Assembly (NCBI GenBank): GCA_002772995.1
Contig: PFCO01000001.1
Coordinates: 64,244-128,243 of the forward strand
Direction: 5' to 3'
DNA: 64,000 bases
DNA from: Candidatus Niyogibacteria bacterium CG10_big_fil_rev_8_21_14_0_10_46_36
Lineage (GTDB): Bacteria > Patescibacteriota > Minisyncoccia > 1-14-0-10-42-19
Each line of letters opens with the position of its first letter. The stretch's first letter is position 1. Shown here piece by piece: positions 1-52,139 of the stretch. A program made the translations under genes and the position numbers. A model generated the notes under the pieces. The model was given only the letters and a program-made list of their open reading frames with translations, was not told the DNA's origin and searched no databases.

Positions 1-794
1 CGTTTTAAAAACGCGTGCCTTTGCACGTGCACTTTGATATACAGGTCTCCCGGAGCGCCATTCGCAATTGCTTCGCCTTGTCCTGTCATCCGTATCATCT
101 CACCATGCTCAATGCCGGGCGGAACGACAACGGTAATCTCTTCTTCGCGCTTTTCAATACCTACGCCTCCGCAGGTTTTACACTTTTTATCGGGGATAGC
201 TCCTTTTCCTTGGCACTCTTTACATTCCTGAAGCATATGCACAGCGCCAAAAAAGGTCTGGCGCTGTTCGCGCACCGACCCTGATCCGTTGCAGGTTTTG
301 CATTGTTCTGTTTTTGAGCCTTCTTCGGCACCCGAACCCTTGCAGATTTTGCATGCGCCGGTCTTGCGGAGTACTATCGTGCGCGTAGCCCCGAATATTG
401 AATCTTCAAACGGGAGCTCAATATCTATTGAAATATCGTGGCCACGCTTCTGGCGCTTGCGCGCTCCGCCCCCAAAACCGAACATACCCTCAAAAATATC
501 TGAAAATCCACCGAAGTCCTGTCCGCCAAAGTCAGCATTCTGCCAGAAATTCGGGTCAAATCCCTGCGAACCCCTGCCCGCGCCGCTAAATGCACGCCCG
601 TACTGGTCGTATTGCGTTCGACGTGTATCATCCGAGAGCACATAGTAGGCTTCGCTTATTTCTTTGAATTTTTTCTCATCCCCCCCCTGTTTGTCCGGGT
701 GGTATTTATGAGCAAGCTTCCGATACGCCTTTTTGATGTCGTCTTTGGAGGCGCCCTTTTCTATGCCGAGAACCTGATAATAATCAACGCTCAT
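1..794 (-). CDS. dnaJ: Chaperone DnaJ (partial; C-terminus runs off window start)
   Basis: Manual translation of minus strand from ATG at 794: [38 protein letters not shown]... (J-domain with HPD motif), Gly/Phe-rich linker, four CxxCxGxG zinc-finger repeats ([32 protein letters not shown]). No stop before position 1. Not in ORF track because it lacks an in-window stop. Confidence 0.9.
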
Positions 795-796
795 AC

Positions 797-2704
797 TTAT
801 TTTTGTTCGTCTTTTTTATCGACATCCTCATGCTCCACATCATGCGTTTTTACGCCTCCCTCGCTCGCCGTATCCGCATTACCGTCTTTCTCTTTTTCCT
901 GGGCCTGCTTGTAAAGTACTTCACCAATTTTAGCAAGTGCTTGAGAGAGTTCTTTTGACGCGTTTTCTATCTCCTCCTTAGAGCCGGATTCTTTGAGTTT
1001 CTTTAGTGTTTCTATCTTTGCATTCACATCGTCCCGCACGCCTGCTTCTACCTTATCCCCCGCATCACGCAGTGATTTCTCCGCAGAATAAACAAGGGTA
1101 TCAGCAGCATTTTTGACATCAATGGACTCGCGCTTTTTCTTGTCTTCTTCAGCATGTGCTTCCGCGTCCTTCTTCATCTTTTCTACTTCTTCTTTTGAAA
1201 GCCCGCTTGAGCCCTCGATGCGCACGGATTGAGTTTTACCGGTCGCTTTATCTTTTGCAGACACGCTCAAAATACCGTTTGCATCAATGTCGAATTTTAC
1301 TTCAACCTGCGGGATGCCGCGGGGCGACGGCGGAATGCCGTCTAATATAAACCGTCCGAGCGTTTTGTTGTCACCTGCCATCTCACGCTCTCCCTGGAGC
1401 ACATGAATCTCAACCGATGTCTGATTATCAGCTGCAGTAGAAAATACTTGTGTACGCTCCACCGGCACGGTAGTATTTTTTTCAATAAGCCGCGTCATAA
1501 CGCCCCCGAGCGTTTCAAGCCCCAATGATAAAGGCGTCACATCAAGCAACAGCACATCTTTTACATCTCCCTGTAAAATCCCCGCTTGCACCGCAGCACC
1601 ATCCGCAACCACCTCATCAGGATTAATGGTCTTATTTGGCTCTTTGCCGAATAATTCCTTTACGGCCCTCTGAATAGCAGGCATCCGTGTCTGTCCGCCG
1701 ACAAGAATAATTTCGTCAATTTGGGAAATCTCAAAGCCCGCTTCTTTCACTGCGCGCTTCGTAATCTCAATTGAGCGCGAAATATATTCGCCCACAAGGT
1801 CTTCAAATTTTGCACGGGAAAGTTTTACAAGCAAATGCTTAGGACCGGATGCATCTGATGTAATAAACGGAATATTTATTTCAGTTTCCGGCGTTGAAGA
1901 CAATTCGTGTTTTGCTTTTTCTGCAGCATCCTTTAGCCGCTGGAGCGCAAGGGTATCTTTAGAAATATCAATACCCGAATCCTTTTTGAATTCATCTACA
2001 AGCCATTCAATTATCGTCTGGTCAAAATCATCACCTCCGAGATGTGTATCACCGTCGGTTGATTTTACTTCTATTGTGTCGTTTGAAACCTCAAGCACCG
2101 ATACATCAAATGTCCCTCCCCCAAAGTCATATACTACAATCTGCTCATCATTTTTCTTGTTAAATCCATACGCAAGAGCGGCCGCTGTCGGTTCGTTCAG
2201 AATACGACGGACTTTCAGCCCTGCAATTTCGCCCGCATCTTTTGTAGCTTTGCGCTGTGAATCGTCAAAATACGCAGGCACCGTGATGATTGCTTCTTCT
2301 ATCTTTTCTCCAAGTTTCGCTTCAGCGTCATGCTTGAGCTTCTGGAGTATCATTGCCGACATCTCTTCCGGGCGGTACCACTTTTCGCCCATCTTTACCT
2401 CCACCCCTCCCGCGCTTGATTCGCGCATTTCATACGGCATGAGTTTTTTATCTTTTTGCACCTCCGGGTCAGAAAACTTCCGCCCAATAAAGCGTTTTAC
2501 CGAATATACTGTATTCTGCGGGTTGGTTACTGCTTGGCGCTTCGCAAGAAGTCCTGCGAGCCGTTCGTTTGATTTTGAAAGTGCGACCATAGACGGCGTG
2601 GTACGCGCGCCTTCGGTGCTTTCTAATATTTTGGGCTCTCCTCCCTCAACCACTGCCATTGCGGAGTTGGTTGTCCCAAGGTCAATTCCTAATATCTTTG
2701 CCAT
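797..2704 (-). CDS. dnaK: Chaperone DnaK (Hsp70), 635 aa
   Basis: N-terminus [22 protein letters not shown]..., [10 protein letters not shown], canonical Hsp70 motifs throughout; stop 3 nt upstream of dnaJ start. Confidence 0.97.
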
Positions 2705-2734
2705 AGTATTGTGATAAATATATTAATGTAATAA

Positions 2735-3265
2735 TTATTCTTTTGAGAGCTTTACGCGTGATGCACGGATGACTTTTCCATGCATGCGGTAGCCTCGTTG
2801 TGTCTCTTCGGCGACCGTGCCCGGCGGGGCGTCTGATTCGGTCTCGCCTACGCTTTCGTGTATCATCATATCAAATGGGTCTCCTGCGCGTACTGGAATT
2901 ACTTCTGCTCCCTTCCGGCGCAACACATCTTCAAGCTGGCTCCGTATCATTAAAATTCCCTTTTCTATGTCGCTCCCTTCCGCATGTTTGAGTGCAAGAT
3001 CAAAACTATCAAGTACGGGGAGGATATCATGTACCATGCCTTCCGTTGCAAAGCGTGCGAGCGCCTGTTTCCGTTCTGCTTCGTCCTTCTTGTGATTGAT
3101 AAGGTCGGCTTTTGCGCGCTGCCATCCTTCCAGATACTCTTGTTTTTCCTTTCTGCATGCCGCGAGATCCGTGCGCAGCTTGTCTATCCGTCCTTCTGCC
3201 CTGTCTTCGCCTTCTTCTACGATCTCAATGTCGTCGTCTTCTTTTTTGTGTTTTGCTCGTGTCAT
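2735..3265 (-). CDS. grpE: Nucleotide exchange factor GrpE, 176 aa
   Basis: Coiled-coil N-term, then GrpE core (RAKADLINHKKDEAER..., GTVAEETQRGYRMHGKVIRASRVKL); sits between hrcA and dnaK. Confidence 0.9.
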   Translation of the reverse strand: MTRAKHKKEDDDIEIVEEGEDRAEGRIDKLRTDLAACRKEKQEYLEGWQRAKADLINHKKDEAERKQALARFATEGMVHDILPVLDSFDLALKHAEGSDIEKGILMIRSQLEDVLRRKGAEVIPVRAGDPFDMMIHESVGETESDAPPGTVAEETQRGYRMHGKVIRASRVKLSKE

Positions 3266-3948
3266 ATTGATTGTAAAAATCTTCGTATAACATCAGTCGC
3301 CCGTTCGTAATCCATGCGTTTCGGGCCGATAGAAATAATAATGCTTGAGCGCGTCGGCCGCCCTACAACTGAACTAAAATGCGAGCCGTCCGGAAACGGA
3401 TTTTCTTTCCCAATAAATACCTGCGGCGCGCTACTCTCATACTGATAAAAATATTTCATACGGTCATGTGCTTCTTCTACGAACGATGCAAACGCGCGCG
3501 CTACATCATATTCGCGGAATTCCGGCTCATCAAAGAGCTCGTCCATCCCCGCCCACAACACAGAATTTTTATCCAAACTCATCATAGTAAAGAGGCCGGT
3601 CTCTTCCGCAAGCTCGTGGACAAACCGATGAAGCGCGGGGACGCTTTCCGGAAGGCGCTCCTCTTTTTGACGCATTCTCGATTCTTCTGCAAGTATCGTG
3701 TCTACAAAATACCGGTATGCCTTATCTGTAGGAACACGCCCCGCAGAAGTGTGCGGCTGTTCTAAGTACCCCTCGTCATCAAGCCGCATCATTATATTGC
3801 GGACTGTTGCGGGGCTTGCCTTGTAGCGGATGTTCCGCGCAATACGAGCAGAAGACACCGGCTCTGCGGTGTGGATATAGTCCCGGATAACATGTTCCAG
3901 AATTGAAAAATCACGGTCTGTTGCTTCCATTGTTTCCATCATAGACAA
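3262..3948 (-). CDS. hrcA: Heat-inducible transcription repressor HrcA (short form, ~226 aa)
   Basis: N-terminal winged-helix region (RDYIHTAEPVSSARIARNIRYKASPATVRNIMMRLDDEGYLEQPHTSAGRVPT). 4-nt overlap with grpE. CIRCE operator immediately upstream. Track start is TTG at 3948; in-frame ATGs at 3940/3937 are the more likely starts. Confidence 0.8.
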   Translation of the reverse strand: MSMMETMEATDRDFSILEHVIRDYIHTAEPVSSARIARNIRYKASPATVRNIMMRLDDEGYLEQPHTSAGRVPTDKAYRYFVDTILAEESRMRQKEERLPESVPALHRFVHELAEETGLFTMMSLDKNSVLWAGMDELFDEPEFREYDVARAFASFVEEAHDRMKYFYQYESSAPQVFIGKENPFPDGSHFSSVVGRPTRSSIIISIGPKRMDYERATDVIRRFLQSI

Positions 3949-3949
3949 A

Positions 3950-3976
3950 TTAGCACTCCCATGTCAAGAGTGCTAA
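3950..3976. promoter_or_regulatory. CIRCE operator (HrcA binding site), perfect consensus
   Basis: TTAGCACTC-ccatgtcaa-GAGTGCTAA read directly at 3950-3976, abutting the hrcA start. Confidence 0.92.
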
Positions 3977-4081
3977 TTTGTATTTTGTACAAACAAAAAG
4001 AGGGATGCTTTGAGCTTCCCTCTTTTAAGTGATTTTTTATATTTCGTTACAAATTTTTCCCTTTACGATACGGAGCCTCTG

Positions 4082-4675
4082 CTACCTTCTCCCTCGTTGT
4101 CTTCCATGCTGGCGCCTTTGTGAAGCCGAGCCTTTATTCCATGCGCTACTTCTTCCTCGTTCCATCTTACCGTTCTGATACCGCTTTCCTTGGGAGTACC
4201 CCTGGTATTGATGGTGCTTATTACGATTGATGCGCTTATCACGAACCGGCGCTGGAGCTGGGGTGGCAGCAGGCCTAGAATGATCTTTGTGCATTCTTTC
4301 TCTGTATTTTACAGGAAGCCCGTGAGAGTGTTGATGGCTCTTATGATGCCCCTTCCGGCCATGGTGCTTATCATGATGATCTGGCTTCTTGTCTGGGGTA
4401 GTGACAGGCGGCCTTGAGGGACGCTCTCCATGATCTTTGTCTTTCTTATGGTCTTTGTGTTTCTTGCAGTCTTTTTTGGGGTGCTTTTTATGTTTTGGCT
4501 TCTTGTTGGGCGGTGGCACTGGGTCCCCTTTACCTAACTGATGGAGCCACTCCCATGTCAGCATCGTTCCCCCTGTTTCCGTCTGATACGCATTTGCGCC
4601 AAACGAAAATGTGAGAGCAAGCATAAAAACCAACAGAAAAAACTGAATACTTCTCTTAGCAAACTCATACACCAT
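4082..4675 (-). CDS. Secreted histidine/lysine-rich low-complexity protein (hypothetical), 197 aa
   Basis: N-terminal signal peptide (MVYEFAKRSIQFFLLVFMLALTFSFGANA), then HKKHPKKDCKKHKDHKKDKDH... and DHHDKHHGRKGHHKSHQHSHG repeats. Strong SD (GGAGGAGG) 6 nt upstream of ATG. Confidence 0.6.
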   Translation of the reverse strand: MVYEFAKRSIQFFLLVFMLALTFSFGANAYQTETGGTMLTWEWLHQLGKGDPVPPPNKKPKHKKHPKKDCKKHKDHKKDKDHGERPSRPPVTTPDKKPDHHDKHHGRKGHHKSHQHSHGLPVKYRERMHKDHSRPAATPAPAPVRDKRINRNKHHQYQGYSQGKRYQNGKMERGRSSAWNKGSASQRRQHGRQRGRR

Positions 4676-4726
4676 AATAACCTCCTCCGTACTCTGTATT
4701 TTTTAATGCACAAATGTATAGTGCGA

Positions 4727-4770
4727 ATTATATAGTATATATAAAAAAATGTCAAGAGTATGCGCTCTTG
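4727..4770 (-). promoter_or_regulatory. Sigma70-like promoter (TTGACA-17-TATAAT) with overlapping inverted repeat CAAGAG-N6-CTCTTG
   Basis: Minus-strand -10 TATAAT (plus 4727-4732), 17-nt spacer, -35 TTGACA (plus 4750-4755). Palindrome 4753-4770 overlaps the -35 element. Confidence 0.6.
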
Positions 4771-4799
4771 GCTCTATTCATAGAAATGTGCGCATACAT

Positions 4800-4836
4800 A
4801 AACGGCTCACACCCCCGTGTGAGCCGTTTATTTTTC
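4800..4836. terminator. Intrinsic terminator-like hairpin downstream of rpsI
   Basis: aaacggctcacac-cccc-gtgtgagccgttt followed by TTTATTTTT. Perfect 13-bp stem. Confidence 0.6.
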
Positions 4837-4852
4837 CTCCAAGTGCGCTAGA

Positions 4853-5269
4853 CTACCGCTTGCTCCACTGTGGAGCTTTTCTTGCCTTTTTCAGTCCAAA
4901 TTTTCTTCGTTCTTTCACTCGCGGGTCGCGCTTTAAAAATCCAGGCCGCTTGAGTTTTTTACGGATACTTTCGTCTTCTTTTACAAGAGCACGCGCAATC
5001 GCATGGCGGATGGCTTCTGCCTGCCCCCGTATGCCGCCTCCCTGTACTTTTATCGTAATGCGGTACCCGCTTGTTTTTTTGAGCTTTTCTAACGGCTCAA
5101 ACACCGCCCGCTGTAATTCATCAATTGAAAAGAATTTTTCTACCGGCTTGTCGTTAATGGTGATGTGTACTTTTTTTTGCTTATCGTCGGCAAAAACGCG
5201 AGCGCGTGCACTTGCGGTCTTCCGCCGTCCTACGGTTTCGATGTATGTTTCTTTTACTGCTGTAGGCAT
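4853..5269 (-). CDS. rpsI: 30S ribosomal protein S9
   Basis: [19 protein letters not shown]..., C-terminal [12 protein letters not shown]. Confidence 0.93.
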
Positions 5270-13486: not shown

Positions 13487-13517
13487 TATTGACAAGAAGC
13501 AAAATATAATATATAAT
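13487..13517 (+). promoter_or_regulatory. Sigma70-like promoter TTGACA-17-TATAAT
   Basis: ttgaca-agaagcaaaatataata-tataat directly read; followed by SD aagggggaa and ATG at 13560. Confidence 0.6.
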
Positions 13518-13559
13518 TTTTTAAAATCCTGGTTGGATATTTAAAAAGGGGGAAATTCC

Positions 13560-13907
13560 ATGGACCTAAAAAAGATACACCCTGATGCAATAACATTTGG
13601 CGCTGTCGCATGCTGCGCGCTTGCGAATCTTCAATCTGATGCATCTGAAATACAAGAAGCATACAGAACCCGCGTCCCCCGCAAAGAATGGGTGGCTGGG
13701 TTCCTTAGTATATTTAGAGACACAACGCAGCTTATCTTTATCCCGACGGAGACACACAAAGACTTTTATATGGAAGTTATTGAAAAAGAATTTGAAGCGC
13801 TGAAGACCACAAAAGAAGACGCGCTCGTATGCGGACATACTCCTTCCGAGCACATAGAAGCGCTTTGCAAGGTGCTTCATGCATTCAATCGCGGAGAAAT
13901 CCATTAA
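13560..13907 (+). CDS. Hypothetical protein, 115 aa (lone plus-strand gene)
   Basis: Own promoter and SD upstream, intrinsic terminator immediately downstream. Preferred over the antisense ORF 13566..13910 because of these signals. Confidence 0.5.
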   Translation: MDLKKIHPDAITFGAVACCALANLQSDASEIQEAYRTRVPRKEWVAGFLSIFRDTTQLIFIPTETHKDFYMEVIEKEFEALKTTKEDALVCGHTPSEHIEALCKVLHAFNRGEIH

Positions 13908-17710: not shown

Positions 17711-18484
17711 TTACATAACCTGTATTGCATAATATTCGATAATAGAATTTGCAAGAAGTTTTTGGCACATTGACTCAACGCTCTTGCGGATGCTTGCCGA
17801 GCTTGTCCCGCGCATTTCAAGCTGTATGCGCTTTCCAATCCGTACGCGATTCACATGAGTAAACCCGAGCGTGTGAAGTCCCTTCATAATAGCAGCCCCT
17901 TCCGGATCAAGAATAGAATCCTTCGGCATGATTTCAACGACGACATGGAATGCCCGCTCGAGGACACTCCGTTCTTTTTCGGTCAACTTTGCGTAGGTGA
18001 CATACGCGTGGCGATGCATGTTCTCTTCATCAGGCAATGCTTCAATGCGGGATATTTCTTTCCACCATGAGGAATCAATATCCGGGAAGAACGCGTCTCC
18101 CTCGCACTCATAATCAATTTCGGTGATATAAAGCCGTTCGGTATATCTCAATCCCTCCTTATACACCACTGAACCGCCAATAATAAATATCTCTTCTGCG
18201 TGAGGAGATATTTGGGCATAAAAAAGCCCCTCACCTAATGAATGCGCGACAAGACACCCCGGAGCCGCGTATACATCACGCTTTGTGATAACAATATTAG
18301 TCCTTTGCGGAAGGGGCTTTTTTCCAATTGACTCAAATGTCTTTCGTCCCATGATAACCGGATGCCCTTTTGTCATACTCGCAAAGTACGCCATATCCTT
18401 CGGTAAATGCCAGGGCAACTTTCCCCTATGTCCGATAACATTGTTTTTTGCCATAGCCGCAATCATTGATACCGCCATAATCAT
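17711..18484 (-). CDS. folA: Dihydrofolate reductase fused to a C-terminal PurS domain, 257 aa
   Basis: N-terminal ~175 aa is DHFR (IGHRGKLPWHLPKDMAYFASMTKGHPVIMGRKTFESIG, IIGGSVVY). C-terminal ~80 aa matches PurS closely (ILDPEGAAIMKGLHTLGFTHVNRVRIGKRIQLEM...SMCQKLLANSIIEYYAIQV versus the PurS VLDPQG...LGF...VRIGK...MCEKLLANTVIEDY pattern). Confidence 0.85.
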   Translation of the reverse strand: MIMAVSMIAAMAKNNVIGHRGKLPWHLPKDMAYFASMTKGHPVIMGRKTFESIGKKPLPQRTNIVITKRDVYAAPGCLVAHSLGEGLFYAQISPHAEEIFIIGGSVVYKEGLRYTERLYITEIDYECEGDAFFPDIDSSWWKEISRIEALPDEENMHRHAYVTYAKLTEKERSVLERAFHVVVEIMPKDSILDPEGAAIMKGLHTLGFTHVNRVRIGKRIQLEMRGTSSASIRKSVESMCQKLLANSIIEYYAIQVM

Positions 18485-28990: not shown

Positions 28991-29377
28991 TTATGGAGTA
29001 GCAAGCTGGCCGTCTATCTGTTCGAGCATTGCCTTTAGGTCGACATCAGCTTTTATAATGTACCCCCTTGCTCCCAGCGCCAGAGCTTCCGCAATTTTTT
29101 CCATATCTGACATCTGAGATAAAATAATCACCGACAAAGCACTCAGCTCCGGGTCTTGTTTCATCTTTTGCATAACGCCAACACCGGACAAATCCGGCAT
29201 CATGAGGTCAAGCAGAATGAGGTCGGGCTTTAGCTCCTTCGCTTTCGTGATACCTTTCTCCCCACTTGACGCAAGCTCTACCTGATAGGATGCATTGTGT
29301 TCTTTTAGAGCATCTGCAAGAACACGGCTCAGCGCTATATCGTCATCTATAATAAGAATTTTCTTTTGATACTCCAT
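28991..29377 (-). CDS. Stand-alone response-regulator receiver protein (CheY-like), 128 aa
   Basis: DDD acidic pocket (IIDDDIA), phospho-acceptor Asp in LILLDLMMPD, Lys in GARGYIIKAD. Confidence 0.85.
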   Translation of the reverse strand: MEYQKKILIIDDDIALSRVLADALKEHNASYQVELASSGEKGITKAKELKPDLILLDLMMPDLSGVGVMQKMKQDPELSALSVIILSQMSDMEKIAEALALGARGYIIKADVDLKAMLEQIDGQLATP

Positions 29378-29387
29378 AATGGCATTA

Positions 29388-29753
29388 TTACGTTACTATT
29401 TTTTTGATACGCTCGGTCAGCGATTCTAAATTAAAATTCGCTTTTACTAAATAATCCTCAGCACCTATACGCTTCGCTTTTTCAATATGATCCCCCTCTC
29501 CGAACTGTGAAAGCATAAACACAGGAATGTCCTTTGTTTTGGGATCTTCTTTAATATGCGTTAAAAGCTCAAGACCATTCATCGGCTGCATCATAAAATC
29601 AAGAACAACTACATCAACATGCGTTTTTGCCAGATACTCAAGCGCCGCGGCACCACTTGTGCGCGTCACCACCTCAAAACCGCGTCCCTCAAACCAATCG
29701 GAGAGCACAGCTAAAAATGTTTTGTCATCATCAACGAGAAGAATTTTCGCCAT
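29388..29753 (-). CDS. Stand-alone response-regulator receiver protein, 121 aa
   Basis: LLVDDDK, VVVLDFMMQP, GAEDYLVKAN. Confidence 0.85.
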   Translation of the reverse strand: MAKILLVDDDKTFLAVLSDWFEGRGFEVVTRTSGAAALEYLAKTHVDVVVLDFMMQPMNGLELLTHIKEDPKTKDIPVFMLSQFGEGDHIEKAKRIGAEDYLVKANFNLESLTERIKKIVT

Positions 29754-29756
29754 AGA

Positions 29757-30155
29757 CTATGATTTCTTTTCTCCCTCCGAAAGAATCGTTTCTATCTGGC
29801 TTATCATGCTCTCGAGACTAAAATCAGATTTTACCAGATACCCCTTAATACCGAGGCTCATTGTTTCAGATATCTTTTCGTAATCCGAAAGCTGGGAAAC
29901 AATAAGCACCGCCGTTGCTTTTATATCTTCGTGCTCCCGAAGCTTCTTTAAAAAATCTTCTCCCCGCATTTTGGGAAGTACGAGATCAAGCAAAATAAGG
30001 TCGGGTTTTTCTTGAGTCGCTTTTGTGAGCCCCTCTTCGCCGTCAACAGCAGTTATGATTTGGGTGAACCCATGTTGTGACAATCCGTCTTCAAGCACCT
30101 TTACAAAATTTGCATCATCTTCTACGATAAGGATCCTTTTTGTGTTCTTGTCCAT
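29757..30155 (-). CDS. Stand-alone response-regulator receiver protein, 132 aa
   Basis: LIVEDDA, LILLDLVLP, GIKGYLVKSD. Confidence 0.85.
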   Translation of the reverse strand: MDKNTKRILIVEDDANFVKVLEDGLSQHGFTQIITAVDGEEGLTKATQEKPDLILLDLVLPKMRGEDFLKKLREHEDIKATAVLIVSQLSDYEKISETMSLGIKGYLVKSDFSLESMISQIETILSEGEKKS

Positions 30156-35795: not shown

Positions 35796-35830
35796 ATTGA
35801 CAAAATATAAATATAATGATATAATCTCAA
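35796..35830 (+). promoter_or_regulatory. Sigma70-like promoter TTGACA-17-TATAAT
   Basis: ttgaca-aaatataaatataatga-tataat; strong SD (ggagg) 8 nt before the ATG at 35868. Confidence 0.55.
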
Positions 35831-35867
35831 AAAGTTAGTATTTCATAAAAAAATACGGAGGTTAAGA

Positions 35868-36080
35868 ATGGCAAAAATAGATAGTCCCAACTGGACGGAA
35901 CACGGATGCGAAAAACACCGCCTTCCCGAAGTCCCCTGTCCCCAATGTTTTGCCGAAGAGGACGCTGATATTGAGGTTCAAATCACTGAAACGGAAGTAA
36001 GGGAGCTTGATTTCAGCCCTGAGCTCTCGGTCCGAGACCTATTACCCCTTGGCTGGCTTGCCGACCGCATAATTGGCTAA
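35868..36080 (+). CDS. Small acidic Cys-containing hypothetical protein, 70 aa
   Basis: Own promoter plus SD; HGCEKH...CPQC possible zinc-binding cluster; lone plus-strand gene. Confidence 0.5.
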   Translation: MAKIDSPNWTEHGCEKHRLPEVPCPQCFAEEDADIEVQITETEVRELDFSPELSVRDLLPLGWLADRIIG

Positions 36081-39235: not shown

Positions 39236-39361
39236 TTATCTCCTCTTGCGGCGTGAGCTCTTTTTGGTGCTCTTCTTTGCTGCCTTTCTTCGCTTCGTTG
39301 TCTTTCGTTTCGTAGTCTTGCGTGAGCTCTTTTTCGCTGCTTTCTTTCTTTTTTTTGCCAT
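39236..39361 (-). CDS. Candidate very basic K/R-rich small protein, 41 aa (low confidence)
   Basis: MAKKRKKAAKKSSRKTTKRKTTKRRKAAKKSTKKSSRRKRR from ATG at 39361; no clear SD; could be non-coding low-complexity DNA. Confidence 0.25.
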   Translation of the reverse strand: MAKKRKKAAKKSSRKTTKRKTTKRRKAAKKSTKKSSRRKRR

Positions 39362-39631
39362 AAAAAATGCGAAAAAAATTCTACCCAACAAACATCGACC
39401 GCGAGCTGTTTGTTGTTCCAACTCATACTACAATAAAATTGTAATACGAGTTGGAATAGAGTGTAAAAATTTTTTATAAAATTTTCTTGAAAGTACTTCT
39501 ATATATATTATCAAATGATTTATTGACAAAAACAATAAAAAATTTCTAAACCTGTGGATAAATATTTTAAAAAAATATTATACATATGCGCGTTATGCAA
39601 TAAAAAAATATTACATCACGCAAAAAAAATA

Positions 39632-50706: not shown

Positions 50707-51387
50707 CTAATATTCCACATCATCCTTATACGCGATAACTTTTACATGAGAAACGCCCGCGCGCCCGGAAAGCTCCCGCACAAATTCATCAATACGAAGG
50801 GTGTCAATAAACTTTACATGATACACCATCTCGGACGCAGTACCTCCCTCTCGTGCGTTAATGTTCAAAAGCATGCTATTTTTTATGTATTTCTGAAACA
50901 ACTCCTCAAATGAGTGGGACCCGCCGTCCTTACTGTCCACAATAAACGAAAGCAGATGTTCGTGCGAATGGAATGAACCGAAATTAATCTTTGTAAGAAA
51001 AAAGATTATCGCTAATATCAGCGCTGTCGAAACAAGCGCAATCGCGTAATTTCCGGTACCAACTGCCATACCCACACCCAACGCAAAGAAAATAAATCCT
51101 ACATCTTTCGTATCTTTGACCGGCGTCCTGAACCGGATAATGGAAAAAGCGCCCAAGAGAGCAAATGCCCGCGCAACGCTGCTCCCGATGACCATCATCA
51201 CCATTGCAACGATAACCGATACCAATACAAGCGTGAATACAAAGGACTGCGAATACGACACCCCGCGATGGGTTTTTTTATACACATACGCAATCAAAAA
51301 AGACAACCCAAATGTGAGCAGGATATTGAACGCAATATACGGAATGGAGAAAGACGCCCCCGCGCCTTCCGAAAATAAACTTTCCAT
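50707..51387 (-). CDS. DUF4956-family membrane protein, 226 aa
   Basis: 4 TM helices then soluble C-terminal domain; pattern recalled as matching DUF4956 proteins that accompany VTC-domain genes. Confidence 0.6.
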   Translation of the reverse strand: MESLFSEGAGASFSIPYIAFNILLTFGLSFLIAYVYKKTHRGVSYSQSFVFTLVLVSVIVAMVMMVIGSSVARAFALLGAFSIIRFRTPVKDTKDVGFIFFALGVGMAVGTGNYAIALVSTALILAIIFFLTKINFGSFHSHEHLLSFIVDSKDGGSHSFEELFQKYIKNSMLLNINAREGGTASEMVYHVKFIDTLRIDEFVRELSGRAGVSHVKVIAYKDDVEY

Positions 51388-51392
51388 ATGGA

Positions 51393-52139
51393 TTATATAA
51401 TACCGTCCCGTAAAGAAAATGCAATAGAGTCTTTCCGGGATGCATCAAGGCTCTCACAATACTTAGAATACGACATGCGGTGCAAATTGAATTCCCGGAT
51501 AACCTCATGCAGATAGAACGGGAGCTTGCCGTTGAATTTTACCTCCATAACGGTCTTGTCTTGCAGCACCGGAACAAAATCCTCTCCTTCATATATAAGC
51601 GAATTGTGTTTTCGTGCGCGTATGTTCCGGTCAAAGGTTATCCGCACATTTTCATTTAACGAGCCGACGAACGGTTCCCGCTCATACACAACCAGCACCT
51701 CAGGCGCAATAGACCGCAATAACTTCTCCGACAAGAATTCTTGGATAACGTTGTCTTTTTTTTCGGAAAGGGTGTCTTCTTCCCGGCCGGCGAATAGCGC
51801 ATACTCCTTTTTTGAAACATATATTCTATCTTTTAAGATAATAGCGTCATCTTTCCGCTTTATCTCAAAGAATATGTTCTCTGAGAAGACGCCGTTTTGC
51901 TTGTACGCCCGCCATCGTATCTTTTTTCGCTTTCTTACGCCGTCTTTTTTTTCATGGTAATAGAAATAGCGAGGACTATCATAATACAAGCTCCATATTT
52001 CATATGACCCGGTTTGTGATTCTGCAGCACGCGGATCACGAGACATAAATGGCTTAATGCGCTTCTTTATCAAAAATTCTTGCTGCGGAGAGAGCAGATA
52101 TTTAAATTCAAATCGCTGAAAATGAAGCTTGGGAAGCAT
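51393..52139 (-). CDS. VTC-domain protein (polyphosphate-polymerase-like triphosphate tunnel), 248 aa
   Basis: HFQRFEFKYLL start and spaced R/K/E residues typical of the bacterial VTC (CYTH-like) domain. Confidence 0.65.
   Translation of the reverse strand: MLPKLHFQRFEFKYLLSPQQEFLIKKRIKPFMSRDPRAAESQTGSYEIWSLYYDSPRYFYYHEKKDGVRKRKKIRWRAYKQNGVFSENIFFEIKRKDDAIILKDRIYVSKKEYALFAGREEDTLSEKKDNVIQEFLSEKLLRSIAPEVLVVYEREPFVGSLNENVRITFDRNIRARKHNSLIYEGEDFVPVLQDKTVMEVKFNGKLPFYLHEVIREFNLHRMSYSKYCESLDASRKDSIAFSLRDGII

Follow-up and report, generated by a model that had tools for sequence, protein, structure and literature searches.

A putative exported polycation encoded in the variable rpsI–hrcA junction of a Niyogibacteria genome

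What kind of gene stands between the end of a ribosomal-protein operon and the start of a heat-shock operon, behind a consensus promoter, and what might its product do? The question arises from a window of 64 kb (the whole stretch of DNA that was analysed, part of contig PFCO01000001.1) in a metagenome-assembled genome of Candidatus Niyogibacteria (CG10_big_fil_rev_8_21...), one of the bacteria of the candidate phyla radiation (CPR). Between rpsI and hrcA, an open reading frame (ORF) that GenBank lists as hypothetical protein COU47_00395, called the target here, is predicted to encode a small secreted protein rich in His and Lys. Coordinates are window positions, unless they are said to belong to the contig of a relative, and the target gene reads on the minus strand. 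An initial annotation of this DNA expected strong expression, and proposed a metal- or polyanion-binding surface protein whose promoter would be repressed in response to metal.

The target is very probably a real, monocistronic and strongly expressed gene, because it combines a complete transcription unit, an ORF of improbable length, a charge layout compatible with export and a promoter resident in the slot, where in relatives it drives bona fide genes. There is about an even chance that the fuller reading also holds, that is, that a genuine lineage-specific gene occupies a variable slot between rpsI and hrcA and encodes an exported polycation that would bind polyanions.

A complete transcription unit

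The target is a complete monocistronic unit, made up of a promoter, an unstructured leader, a ribosome-binding site (RBS), an ATG start codon, the ORF and a terminator that closes it ahead of hrcA (Table 1). The consensus promoter TTGACA-17-TATAAT of the initial annotation is indeed present, with 12 of 12 positions matching, and so is the strong Shine-Dalgarno sequence. The target promoter exceeds chance: perfect matches occur only three times in the window, the one of the target among them, while a naive uniform-base estimate predicts about 0.01 per 128 kb, and all three are intergenic, correctly oriented and located 5' of an ORF led by an RBS. The RBS of the target is notable because this genome seldom uses Shine-Dalgarno sequences; AGGAGG lies within 25 nt of the start in only 3 of the 60 long ORFs of the window, and dnaK and most ribosomal-protein genes do without it. 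Judging from the promoter and RBS in the sequence, the unit looks self-contained and built for strong expression, as had been expected. The leader folds no better than shuffled sequences (z = -0.12), and an Rfam search over the window returned two tRNAs only and no match in the target leader. A reading of the leader as a riboswitch or small RNA was dropped for want of both an Rfam match and significant structure.

The other two perfect promoters belong to plus-strand stretches at 13489-13907 and 35797-36080, where each lies about 44 nt 5' of a small ORF. These ORFs, of 115 and 70 amino acids, are on the minority strand, have an RBS and give no Pfam match. The codon usage of the 70-residue orphan (35868-36080) is also atypical (z = -3.4).

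The length of the target ORF is beyond chance. The 700-nt interval from promoter to terminator contains a stop-free run of 206 codons, and 0.16% of first-order Markov simulations of this interval gave a run of 197 codons or more in any of the frames (p≈0.002). Codon usage was scored with a model built from 45 long genes of the minus strand. The target ORF has a synonymous-codon score of -0.068, compared with 0.107 ± 0.038 for size-matched chunks of real genes, of which none of 108 was as low. This score is 4.5 standard deviations below that of the same protein written in genome usage, and cannot be told apart from that of uniform synonymous choice. Usage is typical in codons 2-56 (z = -0.5; the genes used for training span -2.6 to +2.3), and it is codons 57-197 that deviate, with z = -5.2 against genome usage and z = +1.0 against uniform choice. 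The anomaly, which is found in the low-complexity tail only, points to sequence that is young, acquired or shaped by repeat expansion, and not to a long-resident gene. The coding region also contains two in-frame tandem duplications of 18 nt.

The gene has been called independently on six contigs from JGI, ENA, Logan and NCBI, and the record of the protein gives 459 kb as its longest contig. The five other contigs, from JGI, ENA and Logan assemblies, are 100% identical in DNA over a region of about 1 kb (window 3900-4900; 928 nt on contig L004). The initial annotation had named two points that would speak against its reading, a lack of conservation in relatives and a codon usage like that of non-coding low-complexity DNA, and formally both are found here, the second in the tail. 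Despite this, the other evidence still favours a genuine gene, young or acquired, over non-coding DNA.

The predicted protein and its likeness to known systems

The predicted mature protein has 168 residues, a Lys+Arg+His content of 38% and an isoelectric point of 10.7. It is rich in His and Lys and of low complexity, as first described, although the two residues account for 27.4% and not for the roughly 30% that had been given. Lys and Arg together make up 26%, while His contributes 11.9% (20 of 168 residues) and never forms a run longer than two. The nominal net charge is +29 at pH 7.5 and +39 at pH 6. Behind a canonical signal peptide, the early mature region leads into a Lys/His/Asp-rich block, a Pro-rich linker, the His cluster DHHDKHHGRKGHHKSHQHSHG already noticed by the initial annotation, a Pro/Ala linker and an Arg/Gln/Gly/Asn-rich tail (Table 1).

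On inspection of the sequence, the signal peptide is tripartite. Its n-region contains K7 and R8, its hydrophobic core of 16 residues reads IQFFLLVFMLALTFSF, and its c-region, G26-A27-N28-A29, is followed by Y30; the semi-tryptic peptide predicted for cleavage after A29 is YQTETGGTMLTWEWLHQLGK. Positive charge directly after a signal peptide blocks Sec translocation, and for this reason an exported polycation would need a start that is free of basic residues. Among the first 19 mature residues there is no Lys or Arg at all, against 26% in the whole mature protein (hypergeometric P = 0.002). A tripartite signal peptide followed by a mature start poor in positive charge is what is expected of a substrate of Sec and signal peptidase I (SPase I), and the product is most likely exported and processed. 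The target sequence contains no lipobox, LPXTG motif, C-terminal anchor or second hydrophobic segment. Its sole Cys is C70, and with no Cys near the cleavage site and no LPXTG it has the marks of neither a lipoprotein nor a sortase-anchored protein. AlphaFold2, run on the single sequence, predicts a helix for residues 2-27 (confidence score pLDDT 92-95) and coil elsewhere (pLDDT ~45-60), which is consistent with an intrinsically disordered mature region; past the helix, the model gives no structural clue. The HH pairs and the HDKHH motif make metal binding by the protein plausible.

The target appears to be a lineage-specific orphan, present in one groundwater Niyogibacteria population only. 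A word-indexed search of 5.8 billion clusters and an exhaustive phmmer search of 1.84 billion sequences that represent about 15 billion proteins both returned the query alone. Pfam gave no match at E ≤ 1 and the sequences of the PDB none at E ≤ 10; the best matches in NCBIfam (E = 0.072, 12 bits with a cut-off of 150) and PHROGs (E = 0.054) were not significant. Neither a paralogue nor a repeat of the target region was found elsewhere in the 64-kb window, and a literature search on His-rich proteins in Patescibacteria and Niyogibacteria yielded nothing relevant.

In function, the target would resemble several His/Lys-rich cationic surface binders, but it is a member of none of these groups, because homology was tested and not found. 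The human salivary histatins, such as histatin-3 and histatin-5, are secreted, disordered, cationic and His-rich, and so, as far as its sequence alone can tell, is the target. Histatins have a charge that is tunable by pH and metal, and they bind anionic surfaces. HDKHHGRKG of the target aligns with HEKHHSHRG of histatin-3, in a single pairwise comparison that gave short compositional matches with E = 0.012-0.18. On the other hand, histatins have 24-38 residues and the bacterial target 168, and its mature N-terminus (YQT) lacks the X-X-His copper site. There is no detectable homology with the histatin family, HDKHH/HEKHH being a match of five residues. Kininogen domain 5 and histidine-rich glycoprotein contain Lys/His-rich low-complexity stretches like those of the target, and these bind polyanionic surfaces and Zn. 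They are, however, domains within large folded plasma proteins of vertebrates, and BLASTP of the target against kininogen domain 5 gave nothing meaningful (E ≥ 1). Homology with histatins or kininogen was rejected, since the matches are compositional only.

Among bacterial proteins, Hpn and Hpn-like of Helicobacter pylori are also small, His-rich and of low complexity. Hpn is cytoplasmic and not basic, with about 47% His, long poly-His runs and Cys pairs. The target, by comparison, carries a signal peptide, contains 12% His and 26% Lys+Arg and shows no His run above two, and no sequence match was found between them; a protein of the Hpn type would be cytoplasmic, with at least 25% His and poly-His runs. 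The Lys/Pro-rich tails of mycobacterial HBHA and related adhesins are disordered polyanion-binding segments at the cell surface, and KKPKHKKHPKK of the target is of that type. HBHA, in contrast, contains a coiled-coil domain and lacks a signal peptide; its His and Arg contents are far below those of the target, and the two are not homologous. Finally, plant dehydrins are hydrophilic, disordered and Lys/His-rich, and the target adjoins a heat-shock operon. It nevertheless has no Pfam dehydrin match and no K-segment, it carries a signal peptide, and its promoter lacks the HrcA operator CIRCE (controlling inverted repeat of chaperone expression).

The rpsI–hrcA slot and the control of its promoter

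The window is a typical CPR stretch with ribosomal-protein, rpoA, infA and chaperone genes, in which 53 of the 60 long ORFs lie on the minus strand. The hairpin behind rpsI presumably closes the ribosomal-protein operon, and it bounds the slot that holds the target on the upstream side. On the downstream side the slot is bounded by CIRCE, which lies 3' of the target terminator and is separate from the promoter of the target.

Table 1. Features of the target locus in window coordinates, followed by the contents of the rpsI–hrcA slot in relatives, in coordinates of their contigs (with the identity of their HrcA).
Feature	Position	Strand	Remarks
rpsI	4853-5269	-	Upstream neighbour of the target gene
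15-bp hairpin 3' of rpsI	4798..4831	-	15 pairs; -26 kcal/mol, z = -6.7
Inverted repeat CAAGAG-CGCATA-CTCTTG	4753..4770	-	3-nt overlap with the -35
Sigma-70-type promoter TTGACA-17-TATAAT	4727..4755	-	-35 at 4755..4750, -10 at 4732..4727; 12/12 match
5' leader, 51 nt	4676..4726	-	Holds the RBS
RBS GGAGGAGG	4688..4681	-	5 nt upstream of the ATG at 4675
Target ORF, 197 codons and stop, ATG start	4675..4082	-	
Signal peptide, residues 1-29 (MVYEFAKRSIQFFLLVFMLALTFSFGANA)	4589..4675	-	Predicted SPase I cleavage after A29
Early mature region, residues 30-56 (YQTETGGTMLTWEWLHQLGKGDPVPPP)	4508..4588	-	Trp present; nearly without basic residues
Lys/His/Asp-rich block, residues 57-83 (NKKPKHKKHPKKDCKKHKDHKKDKDHG)	4427..4507	-	In-frame 18-nt tandem duplication
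His cluster, residues 99-119 (DHHDKHHGRKGHHKSHQHSHG)	4319..4381	-	9 His in 21 residues, three HH pairs, HDKHH motif
Arg/Gln/Gly/Asn-rich C-terminal tail, residues 144-197	4085..4246	-	Ends QRGRR (...RRQHGRQRGRR)
Intrinsic terminator AAAAGAGGGA...UCCCUCUUUU and U-rich tail	3996..4026	-	-16.8 kcal/mol, z = -4.3
CIRCE operator TTAGCACTC-N9-GAGTGCTAA, perfect	3950..3976	-	Serves the downstream hrcA-grpE-dnaK-dnaJ operon
Slot of L171 (HrcA 54%)	493-531		Empty, 38 nt; CIRCE directly after the rpsI stop
Slot of L166 (HrcA 69%)	2513-3225		Unrelated 163-residue cytosolic protein
Slot of L167, L169 and L006 (HrcA 67-68%)	L167 3768-5001; L169 489-2082		Two or three acidic CxxC mini-proteins
Slot of L170 (HrcA 56%)	2685-5001		PBP, opposite strand
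Slot of L172 (HrcA 47%)	2082-4001		PHO4 and PhoU, opposite strand

Relatives were found by a protein search with HrcA, after which their contigs, designated by L-numbers, were read. In an HrcA scan of metagenome contigs, none of the matches listed was closer than 38% identity. The adjacency of rpsI and hrcA is kept across the clade, and the content between them varies from nothing at all to genes on the opposite strand. None of the slot occupants in relatives is secreted, basic or His-rich, and blastn and tblastn searches for remnants of the target in L006 and L166-L170 found none, the matches being limited to the last part of rpsI and to the region of CIRCE and the hrcA promoter. The first slot gene of L166, L167 and L169 has its promoter in the same place as the target, after the rpsI terminator hairpin and a T-run. 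The promoter at this position reads TCTTGACAT-17-TATAAT (TAAACT in L166), and the RBS is of the AAAGGAG type (AAAGGAGG in L167 and L169, AAAGGAGA in L166). Since the same position drives unrelated genes in these three relatives, the strong promoter and RBS belong to the slot itself, with a cargo that is lineage-specific.

The inverted repeat CAAGAG-N6-CTCTTG, which the initial annotation took for a repressor operator, does overlap the -35 of the target promoter. It is at chance level, however, because comparable inverted repeats occur 4.6 times per kb (293 perfect repeats with 6-bp arms and loops of 3-12 nt in 64 kb), and for one of them to touch a given -35 is roughly a 10% event. No second copy within one mismatch exists in the 64-kb window, and the palindrome is absent from the equivalent promoters of L166, L167 and L169; where the window has GCCAAGAGCGCATAC, relatives carry the 3' arm and the T-run of the rpsI terminator. 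When Fur, Zur, NikR, CsoR, CopY and PerR consensus boxes were sought in 4800..4676, the best matches were no better than in shuffled sequences (P = 0.11-1.0). A Pfam scan of 20 small and medium ORFs of the window revealed no metalloregulator, nor is there one adjacent to the target. The metal-responsive control that had been proposed thus finds no backing in the regulators, operator boxes and palindrome copies that were looked for. As RNA, the palindrome forms a hairpin of -6.8 kcal/mol, more stable than shuffles (z = -3.2), which is followed by ACAUUUUUUU. Rather than a repressor operator, it is most likely incidental, or else a weak terminator that would act as a back-up against read-through from rpsI; the back-up terminator role is as good as the operator role and equally unproven. 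Expression of the target is probably constitutive and strong.

The target gene lies outside the HrcA regulon, because its own terminator separates it from hrcA and because there is no CIRCE at its promoter, where the best match, no better than in shuffled sequences, has 7 mismatches in 18 positions. The idea that its promoter is a duplicate of the hrcA/CIRCE promoter, with which it shares ACTCTTGACAT, was rejected as well; the CIRCE half-site is missing upstream (4 of 9 positions match by eye). As to hrcA itself, the -35 TTGACA lies inside the CIRCE spacer and the -10 TATGAT at 3943..3938 (window 3928-3976, minus strand). The gene is probably leaderless, since its ATG at 3930 comes only 7 nt after this -10. 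The hrcA starts proposed by the ORF finder (TTG 3948 and ATG 3942) fall within the promoter, and hrcA of L171 has a matching arrangement, TACAAT-7nt-ATG. In relatives, an element of about 75 nt that ends in a CIRCE half-site and TTGAC is repeated, and sequences combining a CIRCE half and a -35 are found 5' of some slot genes (both kinds taken together, L006 1600-1680 and 1818-1890; L169 ~1975-2060, 1375-1392 and 1826-1843). HrcA-like control may therefore extend to part of the slot cargo; alternatively, the hrcA promoter may have been duplicated.

A few other features of the window, all on the minus strand, may be mentioned. At 50707-52139, a VTC-domain protein adjoins a DUF4956/MgtC-like membrane protein, a pair of the polyphosphate-polymerase type that looks unusual for a small CPR genome. 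Three consecutive stand-alone response-regulator receiver proteins of 128, 121 and 132 residues, without an output domain, are encoded at 28991-30155, and a single ORF of 257 residues at 17711-18484 joins a complete dihydrofolate reductase domain to a PurS domain. The small ORF at 39236-39421 is extremely rich in Lys, Arg, Thr and Ser (…MAKKRKKAAKKSSRKTTKRKTTKRRKAAKKSTKKSSRRKRR), and has no His, Pfam match or signal peptide; it may encode a basic protein of the histone-H1-like or ribosome-associated kind.

Possible functions and their meaning

If the target is indeed an exported polycation, residues 1-29 would act as a Sec signal peptide that is cleaved after Ala-Asn-Ala, and the first ~20 mature residues, being free of basic residues, would permit translocation to start. 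The remaining ~145 residues would then form a disordered polycation with about the charge given above (~+29 and ~+39). With no lipobox, LPXTG or second membrane segment to retain it, the protein would be released, and it could adhere electrostatically to polyanions, such as wall polymers of the cell itself or of a host, or extracellular DNA. The His cluster would make its charge tunable by pH or divalent metals, and expression would be strong and constitutive, driven from the place where relatives have a promoter for unrelated cargo. Several points weigh against this proposal. The ligand, whether wall polymer, DNA or host surface, is read purely from composition, and Sec export of a domain of ~+30 is energetically demanding and uncommon. 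The tail departs from the codon usage of the genome. No search returned a homologue, hence there is no evolutionary evidence of selection, and the ratio of nonsynonymous to synonymous polymorphism (pN/pS) cannot be estimated because all six contigs are identical in DNA.

The orphan status among ~15 billion proteins and the random synonymous choice in the tail, behind 55 codons of typical usage, also speak for a serious alternative, albeit a somewhat unlikely one: the ORF could be very young, arisen de novo or recently captured, transcribed from the resident promoter of the slot and perhaps translated, with a tail that is not, or not so far, selected for any function. It would then be an evolutionary transient without a settled function, produced by purine-rich repeat expansion behind a pre-existing signal-peptide-like start. 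This would agree with the 18-nt tandem duplications, with the fast turnover of the slot in relatives and with a promoter position that exists independently of its cargo. It sits less well with an ORF that stays open over 197 codons, with an optimally spaced RBS of 8 nt in a genome seldom using such sites, with a strong terminator of its own, with an early mature region whose lack of charge looks selected for export, and with an identical sequence across samples from several datasets. An extracellular or surface protein that binds or buffers metal (Ni/Zn/Cu), repressed by a metal sensor through the palindrome, is unlikely. In its favour are the 20 His, the three HH pairs and the alignment of HDKHH with histatin HEKHH, a Zn site, as well as the overlap of the palindrome with the -35 and the stability of its hairpin. 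Yet Lys and Arg dominate over His, which does not help a protein to bind cations, and the palindrome is of chance density, unique in the window and unconserved at the equivalent promoters. There is no metalloregulator box above shuffles, and neither a metalloregulator nor a metal transporter is adjacent or turned up in the scan of 20 ORFs. Neither metal binding as the main function nor metal-responsive repression through the palindrome has support beyond composition and geometry. The other half of the original proposal, a polyanion-binding surface protein, is a reasonable reading of the composition.

Attachment to a host is the presumed way of life of CPR bacteria, this one included. It could be imagined that the target is a secreted cationic effector or antimicrobial of the histatin kind, attacking or permeabilising the envelope of a host or of competitors, but this is very unlikely. 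The product would be polycationic, His-rich and disordered, it gives short compositional matches with histatin-3 (E = 0.012 in the single pairwise comparison), and positively charged peptides are reported to kill via aberrant condensation (PMC10028949). It shows no homology to toxin or bacteriocin families, however, and genes for immunity, transport or processing are not adjacent; with 168 residues it is also much larger than typical cationic antimicrobial peptides, and no amphipathic helix is predicted. Highly improbable, too, is that the N-terminal helix is an uncleaved anchor of a cytoplasmic polycation, which would hold nucleic acid, ribosomes or polyphosphate at the membrane. Extreme positive charge normally stays in the cytoplasm according to the positive-inside rule, the Arg/Gly-rich tail resembles disordered regions that bind nucleic acids, ribosomal-protein genes adjoin the target and the window contains the VTC/DUF4956 pair. 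The charges that flank the helix nevertheless favour an N-in/C-out orientation, with K7/R8 on the N side and a net charge of -2 without Lys or Arg for 19 residues on the C side, and the sequence G-A-N-A before Y makes a canonical site for SPase I. A more specific version of the exported polycation is decidedly doubtful as a whole. In this version, the rpsI–hrcA junction would be a promoter-equipped landing slot in which small new genes arise or are captured, and its present occupant a newly evolved Sec-exported polycation that serves adhesion to the host envelope or the capture of extracellular DNA for uptake, in convergence with histatin and kininogen domain 5.

The immediate significance of these findings is modest, as they concern a single hypothetical orphan gene that has been read from its sequence. 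Should the cell indeed make and export the protein, this would be a rare case of a bacterial Sec-secreted protein that is highly polycationic, His-rich and disordered. The protein would then also be a candidate for a factor at the surface, or in contact with host or DNA, of an uncultivated CPR bacterium with a poorly understood biology of attachment. The variable, promoter-equipped slot may be a more reusable observation than the target gene. With its fast turnover and its resident strong promoter, the rpsI–hrcA junction would offer a tractable site for the study of lineage-specific gene gain in the tiny genomes of CPR bacteria.

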